DNA of 20,000 nucleotides from Eremomyces bilateralis CBS 781.70. Lineage: Eukaryota. The stretch lies in the NCBI GenBank assembly GCA_010015585.1, contig ML975155.1; one strand, written 5' to 3'. The notes under the pieces are model-generated. The model searched no databases. It worked only from the letters and a program-made list of their open reading frames with translations, and was not told the origin of the DNA. A program made the position numbers and the translations under genes. Shown in pieces: positions 3,408 through 20,000 of this stretch (position 1 is its first letter; each line of letters starts with the position of its first letter).

Positions 3408-6032
3408 TCAATTCCATCCCAAGCTGTTTTCGCTCATGACCGGCGCGCTGATCTGGGTCGTACGAATGCTCCGGCCCTGGCTACTTCCGCTCTGGCCTGC
3501 GGAACTGCCAGACAGGCCGCTTCGGTCGGAGTATCGGCTCTGGCGTCCGCTCATTCCGGGGGTGACTCTGTCGTGGCCTGCACCCGTCATCCATGGTCCG
3601 CCCTCCTGGCTACCGCTTTGAACGGAGCTGGTTCGCTGGTGCCGTCGTGCCTTGCGTTGCTTGTACCGCCGTGCGACGAGGACCATGGCACCTCCGTACA
3701 GCACTGCGCCGACTGCCGCTGACACACCAACGGCCACGGAGGTGGATTTTACTGGAGACGAGGACGATGCATCGCCCCCAAACGCGGAACCGCCATCGGC
3801 TTTGGTGGGCGACGATGCCGATGGATTGTTAGGCCCCGTGCCCCTGTTATCGTCCAAGAGTTGGCCAGGTAGGAGAGGAATGGACGGGTTGATCAAGCCC
3901 ATTAACGTTCGCGCCGATTCGTCCGGGTTTCCGTACAATTGGCTGACGGGCGAAAGCAGGTCTGCACCGAGCTGGCTCACCTTGTCGGACGCAACGTAAA
4001 AGAGGGCAAGCGTGGTGATGTATTGAAGATCTTCGGTCGTGTCATAGGGTTGCAACGCGTAGAAAACCACCTGCTCCCGTGGAATTTTCAGGCCAAAGGC
4101 GATACCTTCGGGAAGGAAGCGGTAAATTTGGCGTCTGCTAACTGAGCTCGACGACACGAATGGGAAATTGAGCGGATAACTGAAACCAACTTGAACAAGA
4201 GTCGAATCCTTCGGGGCTTCTGGCGTGCCTCCAGGCGGCTTGATGAGTTTTGGCATGGTAGACGGGATGCCCGTCTCGACCGCAGTCAGTGTAACCGTGT
4301 TCGACGTCGGTTCGGCAACGATGCTGCTCGGAACAAATTGCGTGCTGAGCGTATCGGACCCGGTGGGGATGACGCTAAATACGGGCGCCTCGCTTAACGT
4401 GGTTGGTCCGGGAACCACAGTTGACGGGGTCTCGATTTGAGATGTCGCAGAACTGGTAGCGGATAGGGAAGGGTCCACGATACCACTAACCGACGATGAG
4501 CTCACTGGTAGGGAGCTAGAAGGTGATTCCGATAATGAAATGGGTCCCGTTGGATCAGATACTGGAATAGTAGAGTTGCTGATAGGCAGGTCGGTCGGAA
4601 GCGTACTTGAGGTGCTTTCCAAGGTCGGAGTGCTGACAGGTGGTGCCGTCGGGTTCGCGATAAATGAGCTCTCTGTCGAGTTATCTGGCGTCGACGTGGG
4701 AAAGGCCGGATCCGAGGTTTCCGGGGGGACCTCAGATACAATTGACGAGGCCTCCGATGCAATAGAGGACAGGATCAATGACAGATCTTGGGTCGGGGCC
4801 ACAGGGTCCGTGGGATTCGGCGAGGAACTGATGCCTGAAAATTCGGACGCGGCTGAGGACAAGATGCTAGAGATGTCCTCACTAAGAGACTCTGAGGGCG
4901 TCGGAGAGCTCGTCAAATCGCCCAACGCACTGGACGCTTCGGACGCGATTGAAGAGATAACATCTCCTGGGTCGGGTGGTGAAGTGGTCTCCGGTGGAGC
5001 TGATGAAGTGGGAATCGAGTCTGGTGGGAAGGATTCAGACCCGGACGGAAGTGCTTCAATCGAGCTGGAAGCACCGGTTCCCAGCGCGCCAGTTGGGAAG
5101 ACTCCTCCTGTTAGAGATCCGATGATCCCATCCAAGAAATCACCCGATGAGGAGGTGGGAGTAGCGAGATCCGATGGCTCAGAAGCTGAAGTCGATATGA
5201 CCGAATCCGACGCCGAGCTGATGACTGTGGAGAGCCCTACAATGATGCCAGTGGGTGACTCTGACGTCGAAGGTGCAGTTTCGGATGACGGGTCCGGTGT
5301 ACTTGATGGTTGCAAGACCGTCTCGGGTGTTCCACCGGTGCTGGATTCAAAGAAAGCACCGCCGAAGGGGACCGATAAACTTGGAAGTATGATACTCGAC
5401 GGAACTCCCCCGCCGCTGCTCGGGTCGCTCTCCGAATTAGATAATGAGCTTTCTAGAGATGGTGTCGGTAGGAGGGTGGGAAGGGAGAGTCCATTCGATC
5501 CGATTCCAATACCTAGGTCTAGAATGGGGGAGGTCGGCGTCTCGGAAGTCTCCGGCACCACCGGCGCGGTCCCTGACTCTGCGACACCACTTGGGGGAAG
5601 GATACCATCGGTAGTCCCCGACTCTGCGGAACCGCTTGGGAGAAGGATACCATCGGCGGTCCCTGACTCTGCGGCGCCACTTGGGGGCAGGATACCTTCG
5701 GCGGTCGGAGTGGCCATCGGATCGAATACGAAGACACTTGTCGAACTCACTACGATAGTCGTGACAGCATCCGAAGATGTTGTCTCCTCCGTCAAGTCGC
5801 TTGCGATGTTACTGATCAGACCCGAGAAGTCTGACTCCTGGGCGTCTGGTACAGGTAGCAATGCACTCAAATTGCCGATCTGTCTCTTGACAACCCGGGG
5901 AAAATAGTACCGCGGACGGTCGGGGTCTCTGGTATTGGGAGGGGCCGGTGCGGCTTCGGCGTATGTTAATAGTGGCCCGCAGAATGAGACCATGGCCATA
6001 GAGGCCGCTAGAAATCCTCGAGACTGCACCAT
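3408..6032 (-). CDS. MSB2: Signalling mucin Msb2/Hkr1 family, single coding exon, about 874 aa
   Basis: First true ATG is at 6032 (the ORF track start at 6056 is TTG). The protein has a signal-peptide-like N-terminus, a PRYYFPRVVKR dibasic site, a long Ser/Thr/Pro-rich mucin region, a conserved juxtamembrane domain (LVQVGFSYPLNFPFV...QIYRFLPEGI...LQPYDT), one TM helix (VAVGVSAAVGAVLYGGAMVLVA) followed by RRYK, and the Msb2-typical C-terminus ISAPVMSENSLGWN. Confidence 0.93.
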   Translation of the reverse strand: MVQSRGFLAASMAMVSFCGPLLTYAEAAPAPPNTRDPDRPRYYFPRVVKRQIGNLSALLPVPDAQESDFSGLISNIASDLTEETTSSDAVTTIVVSSTSVFVFDPMATPTAEGILPPSGAAESGTADGILLPSGSAESGTTDGILPPSGVAESGTAPVVPETSETPTSPILDLGIGIGSNGLSLPTLLPTPSLESSLSNSESDPSSGGGVPSSIILPSLSVPFGGAFFESSTGGTPETVLQPSSTPDPSSETAPSTSESPTGIIVGLSTVISSASDSVISTSASEPSDLATPTSSSGDFLDGIIGSLTGGVFPTGALGTGASSSIEALPSGSESFPPDSIPTSSAPPETTSPPDPGDVISSIASEASSALGDLTSSPTPSESLSEDISSILSSAASEFSGISSSPNPTDPVAPTQDLSLILSSIASEASSIVSEVPPETSDPAFPTSTPDNSTESSFIANPTAPPVSTPTLESTSSTLPTDLPISNSTIPVSDPTGPISLSESPSSSLPVSSSSVSGIVDPSLSATSSATSQIETPSTVVPGPTTLSEAPVFSVIPTGSDTLSTQFVPSSIVAEPTSNTVTLTAVETGIPSTMPKLIKPPGGTPEAPKDSTLVQVGFSYPLNFPFVSSSSVSRRQIYRFLPEGIAFGLKIPREQVVFYALQPYDTTEDLQYITTLALFYVASDKVSQLGADLLSPVSQLYGNPDESARTLMGLINPSIPLLPGQLLDDNRGTGPNNPSASSPTKADGGSAFGGDASSSSPVKSTSVAVGVSAAVGAVLYGGAMVLVARRYKQRKARRHQRTSSVQSGSQEGGPWMTGAGHDRVTPGMSGRQSRYSDRSGLSGSSAGQSGSSQGRSIRTTQISAPVMSENSLGWN
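5566..5706. repeat. 45-bp coding tandem repeat, 3 copies plus a fragment, inside MSB2 (15-aa unit like TADGILPPSGAAESG)
   Basis: Units 5566-5610, 5611-5655 and 5656-5700 resemble GCGGTCCCTGACTCTGCG..CCACTTGGGGG.AGGATACC.TCG. Confidence 0.95.
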
Positions 6033-6101
6033 CGTGAAATCAATACGTCCGAACAAGATGCAATGGAAATGATGCCGCTGGAAAAGATGTATATGGAACG
6101 A

Positions 6102-12381: not shown

Positions 12382-13622
12382 GGCGGAAGTGATGGAAATT
12401 TGACGAGAATATATAAGCGGCCAACGATGATTAATGTCCGCCGGCAGGCAGTGGACACGTACGGGCTTGGAGCCTCTGAAGTCAAGTAATAGAAGCTGCT
12501 GGAAGTGGTGGCGGAGGGGGACATCGCAGCATGCGGTGGTCGGGTGGTGAGTCTGGCCGCGATGACAAATTGCGGCCTGAGGCAAATTAGGTCAATTTTT
12601 TCGGGAACCCTGGATATCACGTGCCACCTGTATTGTCTTGATCTCTCATAACTCATAAGGCTGAGGGCCCAGAGGGGAACATCCGATCACCGGGCCTTTC
12701 CCCCTCATGCGCCCTCCAACCATAATAGCTGAGAAGGCTGCAATAGTTGATTATAGTTCAATGAAGTGTGAAGAATCGATTACGATCCTAATCTCAGCTA
12801 ATTTCCAATTTGTGGGCTGTTTGCAGAAAAATGTTCTTGTGCCGGATTTATATAGTAGCTTAATAGAGCAAATGTGGTCTCTCCAGACATCCAGGCCAAA
12901 CAACGGCAATCGGGTATTGAAGTGCTAGCCAAAGTTACAATATGGAAACCATGAATTGTTGTTGAAATGATGTTTGCCTTCCCAATCCAGATTGTACGCC
13001 TGAAGAAGCCATGGCATTAATGTTTGGGACGCATCACCTGAAGACAAAGAGTAGGCATATGTATTATGCTTCTTTTTAAGCCAGTTAGGTAGCAGCTCTA
13101 ATTAATGTCTTCTAGATTTATAGAGGCTCGCGGCCCGTATGGCCGTCACTGGGAGCTCTCCAATTTTGGCGACCCCTGGTGGAAGTTCATTCTTAAAGCT
13201 TTACTGCGTCCTCCTCGGGTTTGAGAAGCGGCAGATATAATGAACTGGTACATGGCCTAAACGATTCGCATCAACTCCAGTATTGTCAGTCTCCGCAATA
13301 TCCATGGAGGACTCTCACACCCACATGGACGGAATACACTGTGCCAGATGTCCGCAACTCCCCGGCCACTCCTTCAGGCACAACTTGCCGCTCATCCCAG
13401 ATAGTCGTCCGCTCATGTCCTCCCGTAGTAGTAATATGGAATCGGCGACCATCCCATTCCAACAGCCACGTATGCTATGCAGAGCAATACATCTTCAAGA
13501 CAAGAGCTTAGAGGACTCTCGTAATGCTCTGATGATGATGTACAGGGGATTGAGGTTCAATATCAGTGGTGCGATCCAACACACATGACATGTTGTTGAA
13601 CCACGTTGATATCAGACAATCA

Positions 13623-14703
13623 TCAAGCCTTGCCATTTGTAGAATTCGTTTTCCGCTGATTTACACTCTGAAGAGCCTGAAGATTAAGACTAGAGAGCTT
13701 TGTGCTGCTTTCCGAAAATATGCCCTTGAGGAAATCGATGGTATCGCATGTGTTGCCGTACCCGTTGTAGTGTGTGCTCCTTTTGCACATAGAGGGTTTA
13801 GTAAACTCGTTAGTGATCTTGAATAACCCGTCATATGAAATGCCTTCGTAACCCTGTTCTCGCGATGTAAAACTGCCTTCTACGTGCCCTCTAAATGTTG
13901 GGAGAACTCGCAGCTCGGTTAACTGCCTGGCTAGTTGACCAAGCATATGAAGTCGACAGTCCAGCGTGGGACAAATCTCTGGTCGGCAGAAAGATGGGCG
14001 AGGGAATTGGGAATCAAATTGATCGGAAGCCAATCGATCGAAAGCCATTTCGAATCGCTCTATCACTTTGGATACAATTTTCTTTCTTCGCTGATCTATC
14101 GCATCTAAGAATGGGTCAGAGCATTGCTTGTAGTCGTGACGCGTTTGGCATACCTGTGACGACTTGAGGGGTTGGGTATTCTCCTGGATCGACTGCGTTT
14201 TCTGCCTTACGAACCCAGTTCTTTGAAACCAGACCAAAAATGGCTGAATTAGGAAAAATCCAAGAGAGGAAGAGCCACTCGGCACTCATTTCGCCTCCTT
14301 CAAGTGCAGGTTCATCGCATTTGAACGCGTCATCCACCCATCGCTCGGCCTGATATTCAATTACTTCTAGGCACTCGTAGTAATCGACCAATTTTCCAAC
14401 CTGGAGCAGCTCCGCCTTCGGCAACGACTTGGGCACTTTTCGAAATCGGCCGTGCATTGCATTCAAAATGATCGAGTAACTGGTTGGTCCACATGAAGGA
14501 AGGGCACTGACATCCAAGCTTCCAGACTTTACGGACTCTGACTCTTTCCAAGGGCCAGAAAACATGCGATCGAAATAGGGAGAAGCCACAGATAAATGAC
14601 GTGAGGAGGCGAGGAACGACACAAGTTTGATCTCTTCTTCTGGGAAGGCAATATTAAGGGTCAGATCCCCCTTTGGATCGAGGGTTTGAAAGTTTGAAGT
14701 CAT
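13623..14703 (-). CDS. Fungal BTB/POZ-domain protein, about 343 aa; exons 14703-14154 and 14104-13623
   Basis: N-terminal LDPKGDLTL...FLASSRHLSVASPYFDRMFSGPWKES...IILNAMHG...LVDYYEC is the typical fungal BTB signature. A 49-nt intron (GTATGC...CTGAC...TAG, 14153-14105) joins the ORF-track frames 14116..14703 and 13623..14285 in phase. Confidence 0.88.
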
Positions 14704-15356
14704 AATTGGAGGCCCAAGAAGGGGACGATAGCGTTGGGTGAGGAAACCCTGTGGCCGATATCCCCGTGGTAGGTAGACTGGTAATTGTTCCTATCCAGTA
14801 TGAGGGCCCCATTTCATTGATATGTATCATAATGACTTACCAAAGAAACACGATTGACAACAAGGAGTATTGAACGTAACTGTCAACCCGATGATCTTAA
14901 GTTGCCGCAATGCGCATGTGTTACAGGTACTGGTACTTAGATATATCTAACTACTTCAGATCACTTTCTGTTTACAACAGCAGTTGGAGCAGAGGGACAT
15001 AGAGGTTGAAAGAAGAAAAGTGGGCCAGCCGGGGTTCACACATCGGTAGAAATTCGGTTCAGTTCCTGAGCATCATGGGCTTCGGAGCGGAGACAACACC
15101 GCACCGGACTTTATTAGTGGAGTAAGGGTCAGTGCTAGTATCAATAACATCACGTTGCGATGCGTCGAAAAAGCCTGGAATGTTCAGCAGCAACGGACTG
15201 TCATTCTCATTCTCGATCCAGATTATATAGATTTGTCCTGTATCGATGAGCAAGGCGGCTTCGCTGGAGCGACAGCGCCAAGCCGTGCATGATGATTTGT
15301 TATAACCCTAGTTCCCCACATGAGCCTCGCAGAGAGACCTGACGGTCGTATGAATG

Positions 15357-15373
15357 TCTCTCTCTCTCTCTCT
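15357..15373. repeat. (TC)n microsatellite immediately 3' of the AKR stop codon
   Basis: A run of about 8 TC dinucleotides. Confidence 0.85.
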
Positions 15374-15377
15374 GTAT

Positions 15378-16642
15378 TCATATATGTCCCTGAATAGATT
15401 TTGGCTCATACAACTCCTCTAAGTACTTCGTCTCTTCTTCAGTTAGTGTTTTCCCTGTCGCTGCAACTGCGTCATCAATCCTCTCCAAGCTACTGAACCC
15501 AATAATTGGGCTCGCCACCTTCGCATTCGTCCATGCTAGTGTCACCTGTGTCATAGTCCATCCCTTCTTCTGCGCCAACTCCTGTACTCTCTTAATCGTT
15601 TCCTTATCTGCCTCTGTTGACCAATTCGCAAAGTTCTGCGGTCCTGAACTCCTGTCTGTCTTCCCAGACTCTTCCAGCGGGCGAGCAAGCCATCCACGAG
15701 CAAGAGGCGCCCACGGAATTAGACCAACGCCCGTCTCATTGCAATATCGGTTCATCTCTCGTTCTTCTTCGCGATAGAGAAGGCTATAGTGGTTCTGCAT
15801 TGACACAAACTTTGTCCATCCGTTCTTCTCCGCGGCAAATTGCATCAAGGCGAATTGATAGGTCCACATGGAGGATGCACCGATATAGTGCACTTTTCCG
15901 GACTTCACCAGATCATGCAACGCTTCTATAGTCTCCTCGATCGGGGTGTTTTGGTCGAAGCGGTGGATTTGCAGCAGGTCAATGTAATCGGTTTGCAGTC
16001 GCGCCAAAGAATTATTGACGGCTTGGAATATCGCTTTGCGTGACAATCCTCCTTGATTGACATAGTCTTTCGATTTCGCAATCTGAGGACCCACATTGAC
16101 CGTCCGGAAAGCGGGATCCTCGGAGACATAGCCATAACATTTGGTCAGGATAACAAGCTTATGGCGCGGAATTTTGTATTTCTTGATGGCGTTGCCGATA
16201 ACTTTCTCACTGATGCCATTGCTGTAGGAGTTGGCTGTAGACAGTAAGTACGATGGAGAGTAAGATGGATCAGGAACCTGGTACCTGTGTCCCAAGTGTT
16301 GAGGCCGACATCGTAGGCATGTTTCAGGAGTGGGAGAGCCTGAGCGTCCGACGTTAGTCGATGGATACCTCAGAGAATTTAAATCAATTTCTTCGAGATA
16401 TTCTGCTAAGTAGGCGTACTTTATCCTCATCCTTTACCCAGTTCAACCTGCCATTGGTTAATTTTATTCCTGTCGAGATATTCGTTCGTCTAAGGGTCGT
16501 ACCAGTTGGAGGTACCAAAGCTCATGGCGCCCAGGATGGGGACCGACACTCGTAAGCCACTCTTTCCCAGTCTTCGATACTCCACCTTCGTCTCCTCCAC
16601 GGAGGTATTGAATCTTTTAAGAGCTTCCTCAACGGACGACAT
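15378..16642 (-). CDS. Aldo-keto reductase (YajO / aryl-alcohol dehydrogenase-like subfamily), about 359 aa; exons 16642-16503, 16447-16420, 16339-16285, 16234-15378
   Basis: Spliced protein contains [23 protein letters not shown]...[17 protein letters not shown]...LTKCY...[19 protein letters not shown]...[14 protein letters not shown]...[14 protein letters not shown], with the Asp/Tyr/Lys/His catalytic tetrad. Three GT-AG introns (55, 80 and 50 nt) restore the frame; total 1080 nt. Confidence 0.93.
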
Positions 16643-17490
16643 TGTGGCAGTAATCTCAGATAAATTTAAAAATTGCTCTCGGGTTGATGCTACCAAGGGA
16701 CGCTCAAAAGGGGTGGTAAAAGAATCAAAGGTCCTCAGACAACCGAAGGAAAATCTCGTGCTTAAATAGCTTCAACTTGACACTCGAAAAGGAAATGATC
16801 TAAAGGGTCCGATATGATCGCGCAATATCGCGTTTCTACTAGGGTAGCTATGTTTATATGTATCTTCTAGTATAAATGCGGATAGGAATAATTTCTGGGG
16901 TTTCATATCCGTACTACGCATACATACATTCGCCGGAATGGCCCCCCTATACATCAAATTGCTATTACGGAGTAAAGTTTCTTAATAAGACACGTTTCGA
17001 TCCAACAGAGAGGATGGTTGATATCCAATAGTTATCAACTCCTAACTAGCTGAACGATGACGAGGTGTTGTAGGGTATGTACGGATAAGATGTTATTAAG
17101 GAAGCAAAGGCACTGGTTGAAGGGTAGATTGCCTCTAGGCTATGCAGGATATTGGTTATGAACAGAAGAAGAATATACATAATAGTTACCTCCTTTAAAC
17201 AACCTGACGGCAGATTGACCTCCGTTTTGGGCGGTTTGTGACGCCGTTTTTACTGTAATTTGAGGACCTGTGACTGCCTCTTTGAGACTAGCGTGCCAGT
17301 TCGGGATTAGTGCTCTTTTCCGTTTTCAACCTTCCCAAAACTTTCAAACATAAATACCTCTATTATCCCCCCCTCTCGTAAACCCGCTCTCCTCTATCTT
17401 TTCCCATTCACAAATTCATTTCCTGTCCGCCTTCCTTGCCTCCCCTCTTCGTTTCCGTCGGCCCACCAGCCCACTTTCACCCCTGTGACT

Positions 17491-17620
17491 ATGCCTGCCC
17501 GCGTGAGGAGTGTTGACGATCCACCAGACATTTTCTCGCGGCGGCCACCCCGCCTACCTCCTTCATTCGATTCATGCGACTTGACTGTTCCCCCCTCTCA
17601 AAGGCCCCTCCATTCCAATG
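17491..17620 (+). CDS. Candidate first coding exon of the + strand microexon gene (MPARVRSVDDPPDIFSRRPPRLPPSFDSCDLTVPPSQRPLHSN), phase-1 end
   Basis: Lies downstream of a pyrimidine-rich promoter-like tract (about 17330-17490). The ATG has A at -3, runs 43 codons open and ends at a canonical GTGAGT donor (17621) with a stop just inside the putative intron. No homology recognised. Confidence 0.3.
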
Positions 17621-18549
17621 GTGAGTAATTCTGCCCCTTGTCTCGCTCATCCTGTCCGCCTGGGCGAAACGCCCTCGTTTCGTTACTAGCGGTGCCCCAA
17701 AACCATTAGGGCAGTAAAGGGAGAGTCACTATCTCGCGCACGAAGGCGCTGGGATATTTCTTCTCTCGGTCTCTTTAGTTTAGATTAATGGAACTTGGTG
17801 ATCGCAGACCTTGCACATCCAGATCGTGTCAAAATGTACTCGAATCATTTATAGAAGCATTACGAAAGGCTGTCTTTTCATAGGTGTTCGTGTCGCAAGA
17901 TGCCCCTCTTCGTTTCTACTACCACGCAGCATTCTTCTTCTGCCCATTACCCCCAGGCTAAGCCTATTTAGGACTGCCCACTCATTTCCTATATTTACAT
18001 ATCTTCAACGGTTTAGCTAGAGATCTCTTTTCGGGACACAATGGGAATCGTTAATAATATCAACATGCGTTGTGTCTACACAGTAACTGAGCTTAAGCAG
18101 CGAACTTGCTTAATCATCACCCCCGCGTAATGCGACAGTTTGGAGGTTGGCTTTAGTGCGGGGTTCACGGAACGCTAATACGCGATTCGCTGCTCAACGG
18201 AACTCAATTTAATAAAGTGAGGCCGAAGAATCAGCAGGCAGCTGGTGTCGTTGACCAATGAGTCAACGACATGTCGACTTTGCAGGATTCTGGTCAAAGA
18301 ACCGGTTATGACCTTGAAATAAAATGTGAAGCTCCCCTCTCGTCTGTTGTTACAGAAGAACACCTTAGATTTACTATGCACTTCACTTGCAACGGCATAC
18401 TACGCATTCAGAATAACGTGAAAAATGTCTCTGGCTTGGATTCATGACGGGTTTAAGGTACTTTTTAGTTCATCTGGCCTTCCTAAATCGATGTTAAAGG
18501 AAAGTAAAGAAACGATAAATCGCTAACTCTGTTCATCTCACTGGTTTAG

Positions 18550-19969
18550 CACGTAAGCCAACCTGTCTAAGATGGACCAGATGCTATGACAGCTAACCAT
18601 GGTCTTATTTATTGGTATAGGAAGTAAGTCGACCTTTCTAAGATAGACGGGATATTATGACGGCTGACCGTGGTCTTATTTATTGGTATAGATAGTAAGT
18701 CGACTTCTCTAAGATAGACGAGATACTATGTCAGCTGACCGTGGTCTTATTTACTGGTATAGCGGGTAAGTCGGCTTCTCTAAGATGGATGAGATGCTAT
18801 GACGGCTGACCGTGGTCTTATTTATTGGGATAGGAAGTAAGTCGGCTTCTAAGATAAACGAGATATTATGACGGCTGACCGTGGTCTTATTTATTGGTAT
18901 AGATAGTAAGTCGACTCCTTTAAGATAGACGAGATATTATGACGGCTGACCATGGTCTTATTTATTGGTATAGTGGGTAAGTCGACTTCTTTAAGATAGA
19001 CGAGATACTATGACGGCTGACCGTGGTCTTATTTACTGGTATAGATAGTAAGTCGATTTCTCTAAGATAGGTAAGATATTATGACGGCTAACCGTAGTCT
19101 TATTTATTGGTATAGCGGGTAAGTCGACTTCTCTAAGATAGAGGAAATATTATGACGGCTAACTGTGGTCTTATCTACTGGTATAGGAAGTAAGTCGACT
19201 TCTTAAGATAGACGAGATATTATGACGGCTGACCATGGTCTTATTTATTGCTATAGGCAGTAAGTCGACTTCTCTAAGATAGACGAGATATTTTGACGGC
19301 TGACTACGGTCTTATTTATTGGTATAGGAAGTAAGTCGACTTCTCTAAGATAGACTGGATATTTTAACGGCTAACCGTGGTCTTATTTATTGGTATAGAT
19401 AGTAAGTCGACTTCTCTAAGATGGATGAGATGCTATGACGGCTGACCGTGGTCTTATCTACTGGTATAGGCGGTAAGTCGACTTCTCTAAGATAGACGAG
19501 ATATTATGACGGCTAACCATGGTCTTGTTTATTGGTATAGGAAGTAAGTCGACTTCTCTAAGATAGATAAGATATTATGACGGCTGACCATAGTCTTATT
19601 TATTGCTATAGGCAGTAAGTCGACTTCTCTAAGATAGACGAGATGCTGTGATGGCTGACCGTGGTCTTATTTATTGGTATAGATAGTAAGTCCCCTTCTT
19701 TAAGATAGACGAGGTACTATGACGGCTGACCGTGGTCTTATTTATTGGTATAGCGGGTAAGTCGACTTCTCTAAGATAGACGAAATATTATGACGGCTGA
19801 CCGTGGTCTTATTTATCGGTATAGCGGGTAAGTCGACTTCTCTAAGATAGACGAGATATTGTGTCGGCTGACCGTGGTCTTATTTATTGGTATAGGAAGT
19901 AAGTCAACTTCTCTAAGATTAATAAGATATTATGACGGCTAACCGTAGTCTTATCTATTGGTATAGGAA
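18550..19969 (+). CDS. Putative coding segment made of 21 consecutive 3-nt microexons (partial gene, product unknown)
   Basis: Spacers in order: CAC GAA ATA CGG GAA ATA TGG ATA CGG GAA GCA GAA ATA GCG GAA GCA ATA CGG CGG GAA GAA. Each is flanked by an upstream TAG and a downstream GTAAG(T/C), every intervening unit has CTAAC or CTGAC, and no spacer is a stop codon. No transcript evidence is available. Confidence 0.65.
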
Positions 19970-20000
19970 GTAAGTCGACTTCTCTAAGATAGACGAGATA
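18553..20000 (+). repeat. Tandem array with a 71-bp period (20 full units plus a partial one, continuing past the window); each unit is a 68-nt intron-like sequence plus a variable 3-nt spacer
   Basis: Consensus GTAAGTCGACTTCTCTAAGATAGACGAGATATTATGACGGCTGACCGTGGTCTTATTTATTGGTATAG followed by NNN. Unit starts: 18553, 18624, 18695, 18766, 18837, 18906, 18977, 19048, 19119, 19190, 19260, 19331, 19402, 19473, 19544, 19615, 19686, 19757, 19828, 19899, 19970. Confidence 0.98.

Follow-up and report, generated by a model that had tools for sequence, protein, structure and literature searches.

A tandem array of near-identical introns separated by single codons in Eremomyces bilateralis, probably at the start of a HET-domain gene

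The last part of a 20,000-nucleotide stretch of contig ML975155.1 from Eremomyces bilateralis CBS 781.70 (assembly GCA_010015585.1), referred to here as the window, is a tandem array in which every unit joins one intron-like sequence to one 3-nt spacer. The array is transcribed, single units are spliced out of its RNA with the spacers kept, the spacers are hypervariable, and two related arrays in metagenome contigs both lead into a gene for a HET-domain protein. We consider it likely that the array is the 5' part of a plus-strand HET-domain gene and encodes a variable N-terminal linker, with one codon per unit. It would probably stand at the very start of this gene, preceded only by an exon of 11 codons and an ordinary intron of 92 nt.

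Anatomy and splicing of the array

Tandem Repeats Finder delimits a single array (18566-20000; period 71, 20.3 copies, 86% matches, score 2044). Splitting at GTAAG places 21 donors between 18553 and 19970 and yields 20 complete units plus a last one truncated at the window end, which confirms the initial annotation, made from the sequence alone, in its description of intron-like units with spacers of exactly 3 nt. All complete units (20/20) end in TATAG followed by exactly 3 nt. Nineteen of them start with GTAAGT and the first with GTAAGC, the branch motif is GCTGAC in 14 units and GCTAAC in six, and the branch A lies 24 nt from the intron end, all as annotated; the alignment columns likewise bear out that donor, CTRAC and terminal AG are intact in each complete unit. 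Judged by U2-type GT-AG criteria, a GT donor, a CTRAY branch site some 20-30 nt ahead of the intron end and an AG acceptor are found in 20/20 complete units and in intron 1. A unit length of 71 bp, which had been claimed for every unit, holds for 18 of the 20; the other two measure 69 and 70 bp, with introns of 66 and 67 nt in place of 68 nt. These length changes are confined to the intron-like part, and all 21 spacers of the window are 3 nt long when the CAC at 18550-18552 is counted. The window holds nine occurrences of the junction pattern and 18 of the unit head, all of them within the array, and 200 shuffles gave no match. A second, internal GTAAG lies inside the unit at 19048.

Half of the intron columns (34/68) are invariant, including all 11 signal columns (GTAAG, CT.AC, AG; hypergeometric P = 1.9e-4), and the spacer is the most variable run of three adjacent columns, with 29 minority letters in its three columns versus 93 in the 68 intron columns. 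The per-site pairwise difference is 0.63 in spacers versus 0.115 in introns (0.68, 0.77 and 0.44 by codon position). Seven triplets make up the 21 spacers (GAA eight times, ATA five, CGG four, GCA two, and GCG, TGG and CAC once each), encoding Glu, Ile, Arg, Ala, Trp and His. A frame scan ruled out the array as one open reading frame on either strand, the longest stop-to-stop frame crossing it being at most 61 codons on both strands. No Rfam match was obtained at E up to 1 in 17500-20000, the folding of four units was no better than that of shuffles (z -0.2 to 0.32), and no conserved unit fold was found (consensus -2.19 kcal/mol, double change in 1/12 pairs).

Two side observations concern the history and extent of the array. 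The differences among its units comprise 76 transitions versus 14 transversions, many of them at CpG (as in the CGG/TGG and GCG/GCA spacers); the CpG transitions hint at methylation-linked or mild RIP-like (repeat-induced point mutation) change of a live array, and the dinucleotide indices of the DNA flanking the array are normal (TpA/ApT 0.63-0.87). DNA depth over the first two units (18539-18700) is 31 times (run X1) and 59 times (run X2) that of the preceding bins, which is not a copy number but fits tens of units genome-wide, so that the array probably continues beyond the window or has sister arrays.

Evidence for splicing comes from a comparison, over 13000-18700, of two DNA runs of the organism (X1 and X2) and one presumed RNA run (X3); a further run with the species label of X1 (X6) matched the window with one short piece only. 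X3 alone has joints with CT..AC ends in minus-strand neighbor genes, five in number and spanning 49-80 nt each, indicating that this run holds spliced RNA. Contigs of X3 of 1244, 1303 and 465 nt show zero differences to the window, and X3 therefore comes from the same or a nearly identical strain, making a strain difference unlikely. Its depth is 0 in 18157-18347 and 390 in 18348-18538, a step that would place the transcript start within 18348-18425. A GT..AG joint from 18457 to 18550 (18455 to 18548 with the cut at +2), found in X3 alone in one contig at a depth of 294.9, fixes exon 1, intron 1 and the plus strand.

Within the array, X3 carries AAT inserted behind 18622 (depth 294.9 of 562.2, one contig), compared with 0 of 5938.8 in X1 and 0 of 29885.3 in X2, and GCG inserted behind 18619 (59.2 of 392.9, one contig), which is also absent from X1 and X2. 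The first insertion reads as spacer GAA, spacer ATA and then a donor, and the second as CGG followed by GAA; in both, the joined pair is flanked by acceptor and donor sequence. The two forms are the products of removing one 68-nt unit while the neighboring units are still in place, and the direct evidence for single-unit removal consists of these two spacer-to-spacer joins rather than of a join for each of the 20 units. Because the succession GAA-ATA occurs in full three times (from 18621, 18834 and 19328), the source unit of the AAT form is not fixed; CGG and GAA are likewise neighbors at three places. The spacer joins observed in X3 link neighboring spacers, in contigs that cannot reveal rare isoforms. 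The core of the initial annotation, that codon-sized exons are separated by real introns, is supported by this splicing of intron 1 and of array units: there is plus-strand transcription, the RNA is not only unspliced, and spacers are retained, each the reverse of what had been named as speaking against the idea.

The array introns resemble ordinary introns of this genome in length and surpass them in their signals. Five cleanly placed, RNA-verified ordinary introns measure 49-92 nt and have the donors GTATGC, GTACCA, GTACGC, GTACGA and GTACTT; a sixth joint, 14790 to 14844, was excluded as it stems from a diverged copy with three extra letters. Relative to this set the array introns have uniformly stronger signals, which fits a need to be recognized without help from a flanking exon.

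In the model that we favor, each unit of 69-71 bp would combine a short spliceosomal intron, its signals close to the consensus, with a single codon. Recognition would proceed intron by intron (intron definition), as would removal, and since acceptor and next donor are 3 nt apart, neighboring introns could presumably not be engaged together. Removal would then take place in successive rounds, with which the X3 forms, having one unit gone and both neighbors present, are consistent. In the finished mRNA every unit would be represented by one codon, placed between exon 1 and an exon of HET type, and the protein would have an N-terminal linker of low complexity and variable sequence. Unequal exchange between units would alter the number and order of residues but never the frame, and insertions or deletions in the introns would be harmless, such that the instability of a minisatellite could be turned into length and sequence variation of a peptide beside a cell-death domain.

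Related arrays and the HET module

Scanning metagenome contigs with the unit junction pattern identified two loci, L001 and L002. The 5' region of the window (18180-18560) aligns with positions 740-1120 of L002 at 77% column identity, spanning a CCAAT-box-like motif, exon 1 and intron 1, and exon 1 is homologous to that of L002 (MALTWIQEEFK). L002 contains 14 introns, each exactly 66 nt long, with eight spacers of 3 nt and six of 6 nt, and its per-site pairwise difference is 0.45 in spacers versus 0.135 in introns. Directly behind the last TAG an exon of 380 codons (P0001) opens in frame 0; it contains a HET domain (PF06985, E = 7.5e-30) and is followed by a 56-nt intron and an exon of 230-odd codons. 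Pfam detected HET only, and no NACHT or ankyrin domain, in the six L002 frames scanned.

The L001 locus has 84 units of 70 bp followed by a HET homolog (tblastn E = 4e-61 and 1.5e-34). Its per-site pairwise difference is 0.73 in spacers versus 0.135 in introns, and the spacer columns are the top three of 70; blastn and inspection by eye found no exon-1 homolog upstream of this array. RIP-type damage extends across the whole contig (1-13924), including array, HET gene and flanks (GC 32-38%, TpA/ApT 1.5-1.8); many W and Q codons have turned to stops, and 7 of the 84 spacers are TAG. Sixteen of the 84 donors are damaged. Twelve of the 84 start with A, 11 of those after a spacer ending in T, and donors are changed to ATAAGT in 11/16 cases when preceded by T and in 1/68 otherwise, so that the T-preceded damage is the TpG-to-TpA change expected of RIP. 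A HET gene thus lies directly downstream and in frame in both related arrays, one intact (L002) and one dead (L001). The lead to NACHT-ankyrin genes that the initial annotation had offered did not hold, given the HET domain behind both. By homology, the array of the window would most likely end at a large exon that starts with a module of the form W-x-Y-x-x-D-N-x-F-A and carries a HET domain.

The spacers of L002 offer some further detail. Its 6-nt spacers are at 1249-1254, 1459-1464, 1600-1605, 1741-1746, 1813-1818 and 1954-1959; five begin with TTT and one with CTT. As TTT occurs eight times as a separate 3-nt spacer in L001, the 6-nt exons look like two single-codon exons fused by exact intron loss, and to judge from the repeat periods (141 and 210 in Tandem Repeats Finder) they look to have been copied afterwards within a 141-bp higher-order unit. 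At 2089-2100 of L002 the last acceptor TAG is followed by CAG, a tandem acceptor.

P0001 has its relatives among the HET-domain proteins of numerous ascomycetes, with a best identity of 46%. The HET domain is described as a TIR-related cell-death module that is frequent in incompatibility genes, many of them hypervariable (PMC10197012). Nine of 17 compared relatives align from residue 2-3 of the large exon, at W-x-Y-x-x-D-N-x-F-A, and the parts ahead of the module differ among them (kinase, DUF6606, short tails), indicating that the border between intron array and large exon is also a module border. The protein P0247, from assembled public reads and one of 120 shorter relatives, is 82% identical to the L002 exon and begins MALTWIQKEFKNVRDLLSVNRDWRYLEDNGFAKRFF in one open frame: the exon-1 peptide, nine residues, and then the module. 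A close relative of it, P0243, is continuous across the second intron of L002, which suggests spliced RNA as the source; in that case P0247 would represent a mature mRNA in which a chain of spacer codons is retained. The Gln encoded at the tandem acceptor of L002 is missing from P0247, and we speculate that this would fit use of the second AG. In P0244 (61% identical) and in P0002 of Venustampulla, a similar W-x-x-x-x-F-K/E motif is followed by 30-47 variable residues.

P0002, a Venustampulla echinocandica model and the best named relative, has at about 390-456 the sequence FWAHHSFK, like the exon-1 end, and then a stretch of 47 residues, with D, E, R and W abundant, before the module; in this model a saccharopine dehydrogenase is fused on the upstream side. 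From this arrangement, the P0002 gene may hold a similar array. Since the database models P0242 and P0243, which represent genes of the L002 type, start at internal methionines, an entire class of variable HET N-termini may be missing from fungal proteomes. More generally, repeat masking and gene predictors hide genes of this kind.

Alternative explanations and known systems

Several points weigh against a HET gene with a complete chain of spacer codons. The exon behind the array lies beyond the window (after 20000), and the complete spacer chain of this organism is in no contig or read among the loose ends listed. Each of the three RNA observations is one contig from one run, and that run is labeled 'RNA?' and was made from another sample than X1 and X2. 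The 6-nt form could be genomic in the RNA strain, as L002 DNA has 6-nt spacers, and the only argument against this is the identity of the other X3 contigs. Likewise P0247 may stem from an intron-less gene rather than from RNA. Among the 21 window spacers none is a stop, but this is not significant ((61/64)^21 ~0.36). The residue order in the window gives no amphipathic-helix signal (shuffle p = 0.22-0.55), and that of L002 is borderline in the same test (p = 0.04-0.09, uncorrected). Introns that share a neighboring codon show no raised similarity (p = 0.88 and 0.45), and the comparison gives no sign of co-inheritance of a codon and its neighboring intron and no clear duplication history. The frame would also be kept if exon 1 or CAC were spliced straight to the last exon, so that the mature mRNA may lack spacers, and L001 demonstrates that such arrays persist as dead DNA.

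One competing explanation is a non-coding minisatellite inside one long 5' intron, with exon 1 or CAC joined to a downstream exon and the splicing of units representing noise at cryptic but strong sites; we regard it as unlikely but as the strongest competitor. Such a join would preserve the frame, given the phase-0 end of exon 1 and spacer lengths that are all multiples of 3; X3 yielded only partly spliced forms, the window spacers show neither significant stop depletion nor helix periodicity, and L001 contains a large array without function. The repeat does have the head-to-tail arrangement of 10-100 bp units that characterizes minisatellites, but its units are spliced singly and its spacers are frame-preserving and hypervariable. 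The spacers are kept in the observed RNA forms and measure 3 or 6 nt in 21/21 cases in the window and 14/14 in L002, whereas intron length varies by 1, 2, 4 and 9 nt. Independent arrays agree in having their highest variability in the spacers and in keeping the signals invariant, and P0247 has nine residues between the exon-1 peptide and the module. These features favor a chain of coding spacers.

Alternatively, the array could be a decaying pseudogene like L001, transcribed and spliced but encoding nothing. Relics of such arrays exist, as L001 illustrates, the differences among the window units are mostly transitions, and repeats attract RIP-type or methylation-type mutation. The state of the two arrays is nevertheless very different: 21/21 donors are intact and 0/21 spacers are stops in the window, compared with 16/84 damaged donors and 7/84 TAG spacers in L001, the TpA/ApT ratio of the flanks is normal, and the locus is expressed and spliced in X3. 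We therefore consider decay very improbable. Least probable of all is a truffle-type NACHT-ankyrin (nank) gene, with the array feeding an NLR gene: the nank family is the source of the only published fungal serial 3-nt exons found in the available portions of the literature, and the downstream exon of the window is out of view, but both related arrays run into HET genes, the L002 frames are without NACHT or ankyrin, the 5' region of the window is homologous to L002, and the best 120 relatives of the SEC27 protein encoded in the window include no named truffle or other Pezizomycete (at most 93% identity to named proteins, from Sarea, Pseudovirgaria, Elasticomyces, Zymoseptoria, lichen-forming fungi and others).

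A HET-gene array would nonetheless have its closest counterpart in truffles. The nank genes of Tuber melanosporum are described as containing tens of alternatively spliced 3-bp mini-exons (PMC9815663, PMC4986451, PMC3689799, PMC10197012, PMC13449251). To the extent of the text available from these sources, the likeness lies in serial codon-sized exons of a fungal gene for non-self recognition or cell death, in their being hidden from ordinary gene prediction and in the proposed use, the diversification of part of the protein; series of 3-nt exons numbering in the tens are common to both (at least 21 in the window, 14 and 84 units in the relatives). The systems differ in the partner domain, which is HET rather than NACHT-ankyrin in the related loci, in the position of the array, which follows an 11-codon exon at the extreme N-terminus, whereas the nank exons belong to a C-terminal sensor domain (PMC9815663), and in the organism, a filamentous ascomycete outside Tuber. 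Alternative splicing is described as the hallmark of nank genes; the joins observed here, in contigs that cannot reveal rare isoforms, are between neighboring spacers. A literature search returned no report of micro-exons in HET genes, although subscription papers and supplements may hold more, and the nank family was the only precedent found, the present case belonging to another gene family, position and lineage. A 2026 paper still calls the truffle mechanism lineage-specific (PMC13449251).

Other known systems share single features with the array. The micro-exon genes of Schistosoma are described as having exons of 3-81 bp and introns of up to 5 kb and as encoding secreted proteins (PMC10526429). 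Like the array, and as far as that account goes, they use runs of very short frame-preserving exons for variable, low-complexity segments; unlike them, the array has near-identical tandem introns of 66-68 nt, all window exons after exon 1 are 3 nt long, and the product would probably be a cytoplasmic HET-type protein. Introner-like elements are likewise families of near-identical spliceosomal introns within one genome, reported to number in the hundreds and to lie in unrelated genes, to exceed regular introns in length and to have stable predicted structures (PMC3609843). In contrast, all 18 unit-head matches in the 20-kb window lie in one array, and the array introns have ordinary length and no stable predicted fold. 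In fungal NLR and HET-E-type proteins, WD40, ankyrin and TPR arrays are described as having hypervariable positions that are reshuffled by unequal crossing-over (PMC9815663). These share with our array the tandem repetition beside a cell-death domain and the few hypervariable positions, but they consist of coding repeats of ~40 residues, whereas 96% of each unit here is intron and one codon is coding. The array also calls to mind the recursive splice sites (ratchet points) of long animal introns, where an acceptor is followed by a strong donor and the intron is removed stepwise. At such sites AG directly abuts GT, giving a zero-length exon that leaves nothing in the mRNA, unlike the 3 nt that separate AG and GT in 21/21 cases here and are kept in the observed RNA forms.

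The array presents what would be an extreme test of intron definition, with acceptor and next donor 3 nt apart. If the spacers are coding, it exposes a protein to the rapid mutation of a minisatellite while avoiding frameshifts, and it would provide a second, independent case beside the truffle nank genes for the study of fungal immunity and incompatibility. Tentatively, and with some doubt, we propose that HET genes of at least one non-truffle lineage of filamentous ascomycetes use a self-similar intron array as a codon cassette, in which the gain, loss and exchange of units, and perhaps splicing skips, would generate variation in a hypervariable N-terminal peptide that tunes recognition. The part of this proposal that concerns recognition specificity, which draws on the link of the HET domain to incompatibility and on the analogy with truffles, is conceivable rather than probable. 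If true, serial micro-exons would be a recurrent diversification device of fungal immune-type genes and not a truffle oddity, and the 84 units of L001 would form, to our knowledge, the longest known run of single-codon exons.

The 5' region and its surroundings

The features of the gene start and of the array are collected in Table 1. The CCAAT-box-like motif TTGACCAAT, identical in the homologous region of L002, is a putative promoter element.

Table 1. Positions of the array, its introns and codon-sized exons, and the features of the 5' region in the window
Feature	Position	Strand	Basis or remark
Array, 20 complete intron units and one cut unit	18553..20000	+	GTAAG splitting, Tandem Repeats Finder, X3 RNA for single units
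First codon-sized exon, CAC	18550..18552	+	Between RNA-verified acceptor 18549 and first array donor 18553
Array introns 1-7	18553-18620, 18624-18691, 18695-18762, 18766-18833, 18837-18902, 18906-18973, 18977-19044	+	
Array introns 8-14	19048-19115, 19119-19186, 19190-19256, 19260-19327, 19331-19398, 19402-19469, 19473-19540	+	
Array introns 15-20	19544-19611, 19615-19682, 19686-19753, 19757-19824, 19828-19895, 19899-19966	+	
Cut unit	19970-20000	+	
3-nt exon starts, first ten	18621, 18692, 18763, 18834, 18903, 18974, 19045, 19116, 19187, 19257	+	
3-nt exon starts, last ten	19328, 19399, 19470, 19541, 19612, 19683, 19754, 19825, 19896, 19967	+	
One fitting site for the GAA+ATA form	18621..18694	+	GAA 18621-18623, intron 18624-18691 removed, ATA 18692-18694
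Exon 1, 33 nt	18425..18457	+	11 codons (MSLAWIHDGFK), phase 0; ATG at 18425; 3' end from RNA joint
Intron 1, 92 nt	18458..18549	+	GTACTT...CGCTAAC...TTTAG, outside the repeat; skipped in RNA run X3 only
Possible upstream open reading frame, 23 codons	18376..18447	+	Overlaps exon-1 start codon; relevant only if the transcript starts before 18376
CCAAT-box-like motif, putative promoter	18251..18259	+	Identical in homologous 5' region of L002

The upstream neighbor of the array gene is a minus-strand aldo-keto reductase gene. Between the two, at 17393-18156, the summed DNA contig depth is about 80 times that of single-copy neighbors (14435 versus ~180 in X1) and RNA depth is also high, and a joint seen only in DNA skips 17974-18106. 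A dispersed repeat or a piece of a transposon is probable here, immediately 5' of the promoter; a search for terminal repeats gave no clear ones, and a repeat search of the intergenic region 16700-18430 gave nothing notable. Elsewhere in the window, a minus-strand frame of 882 codons (3408-6056), with no Pfam match, hosts a 45-bp tandem repeat of 3.1 copies (5569-5706) that encodes an Arg/Trp/Pro-rich 15-residue repeat.

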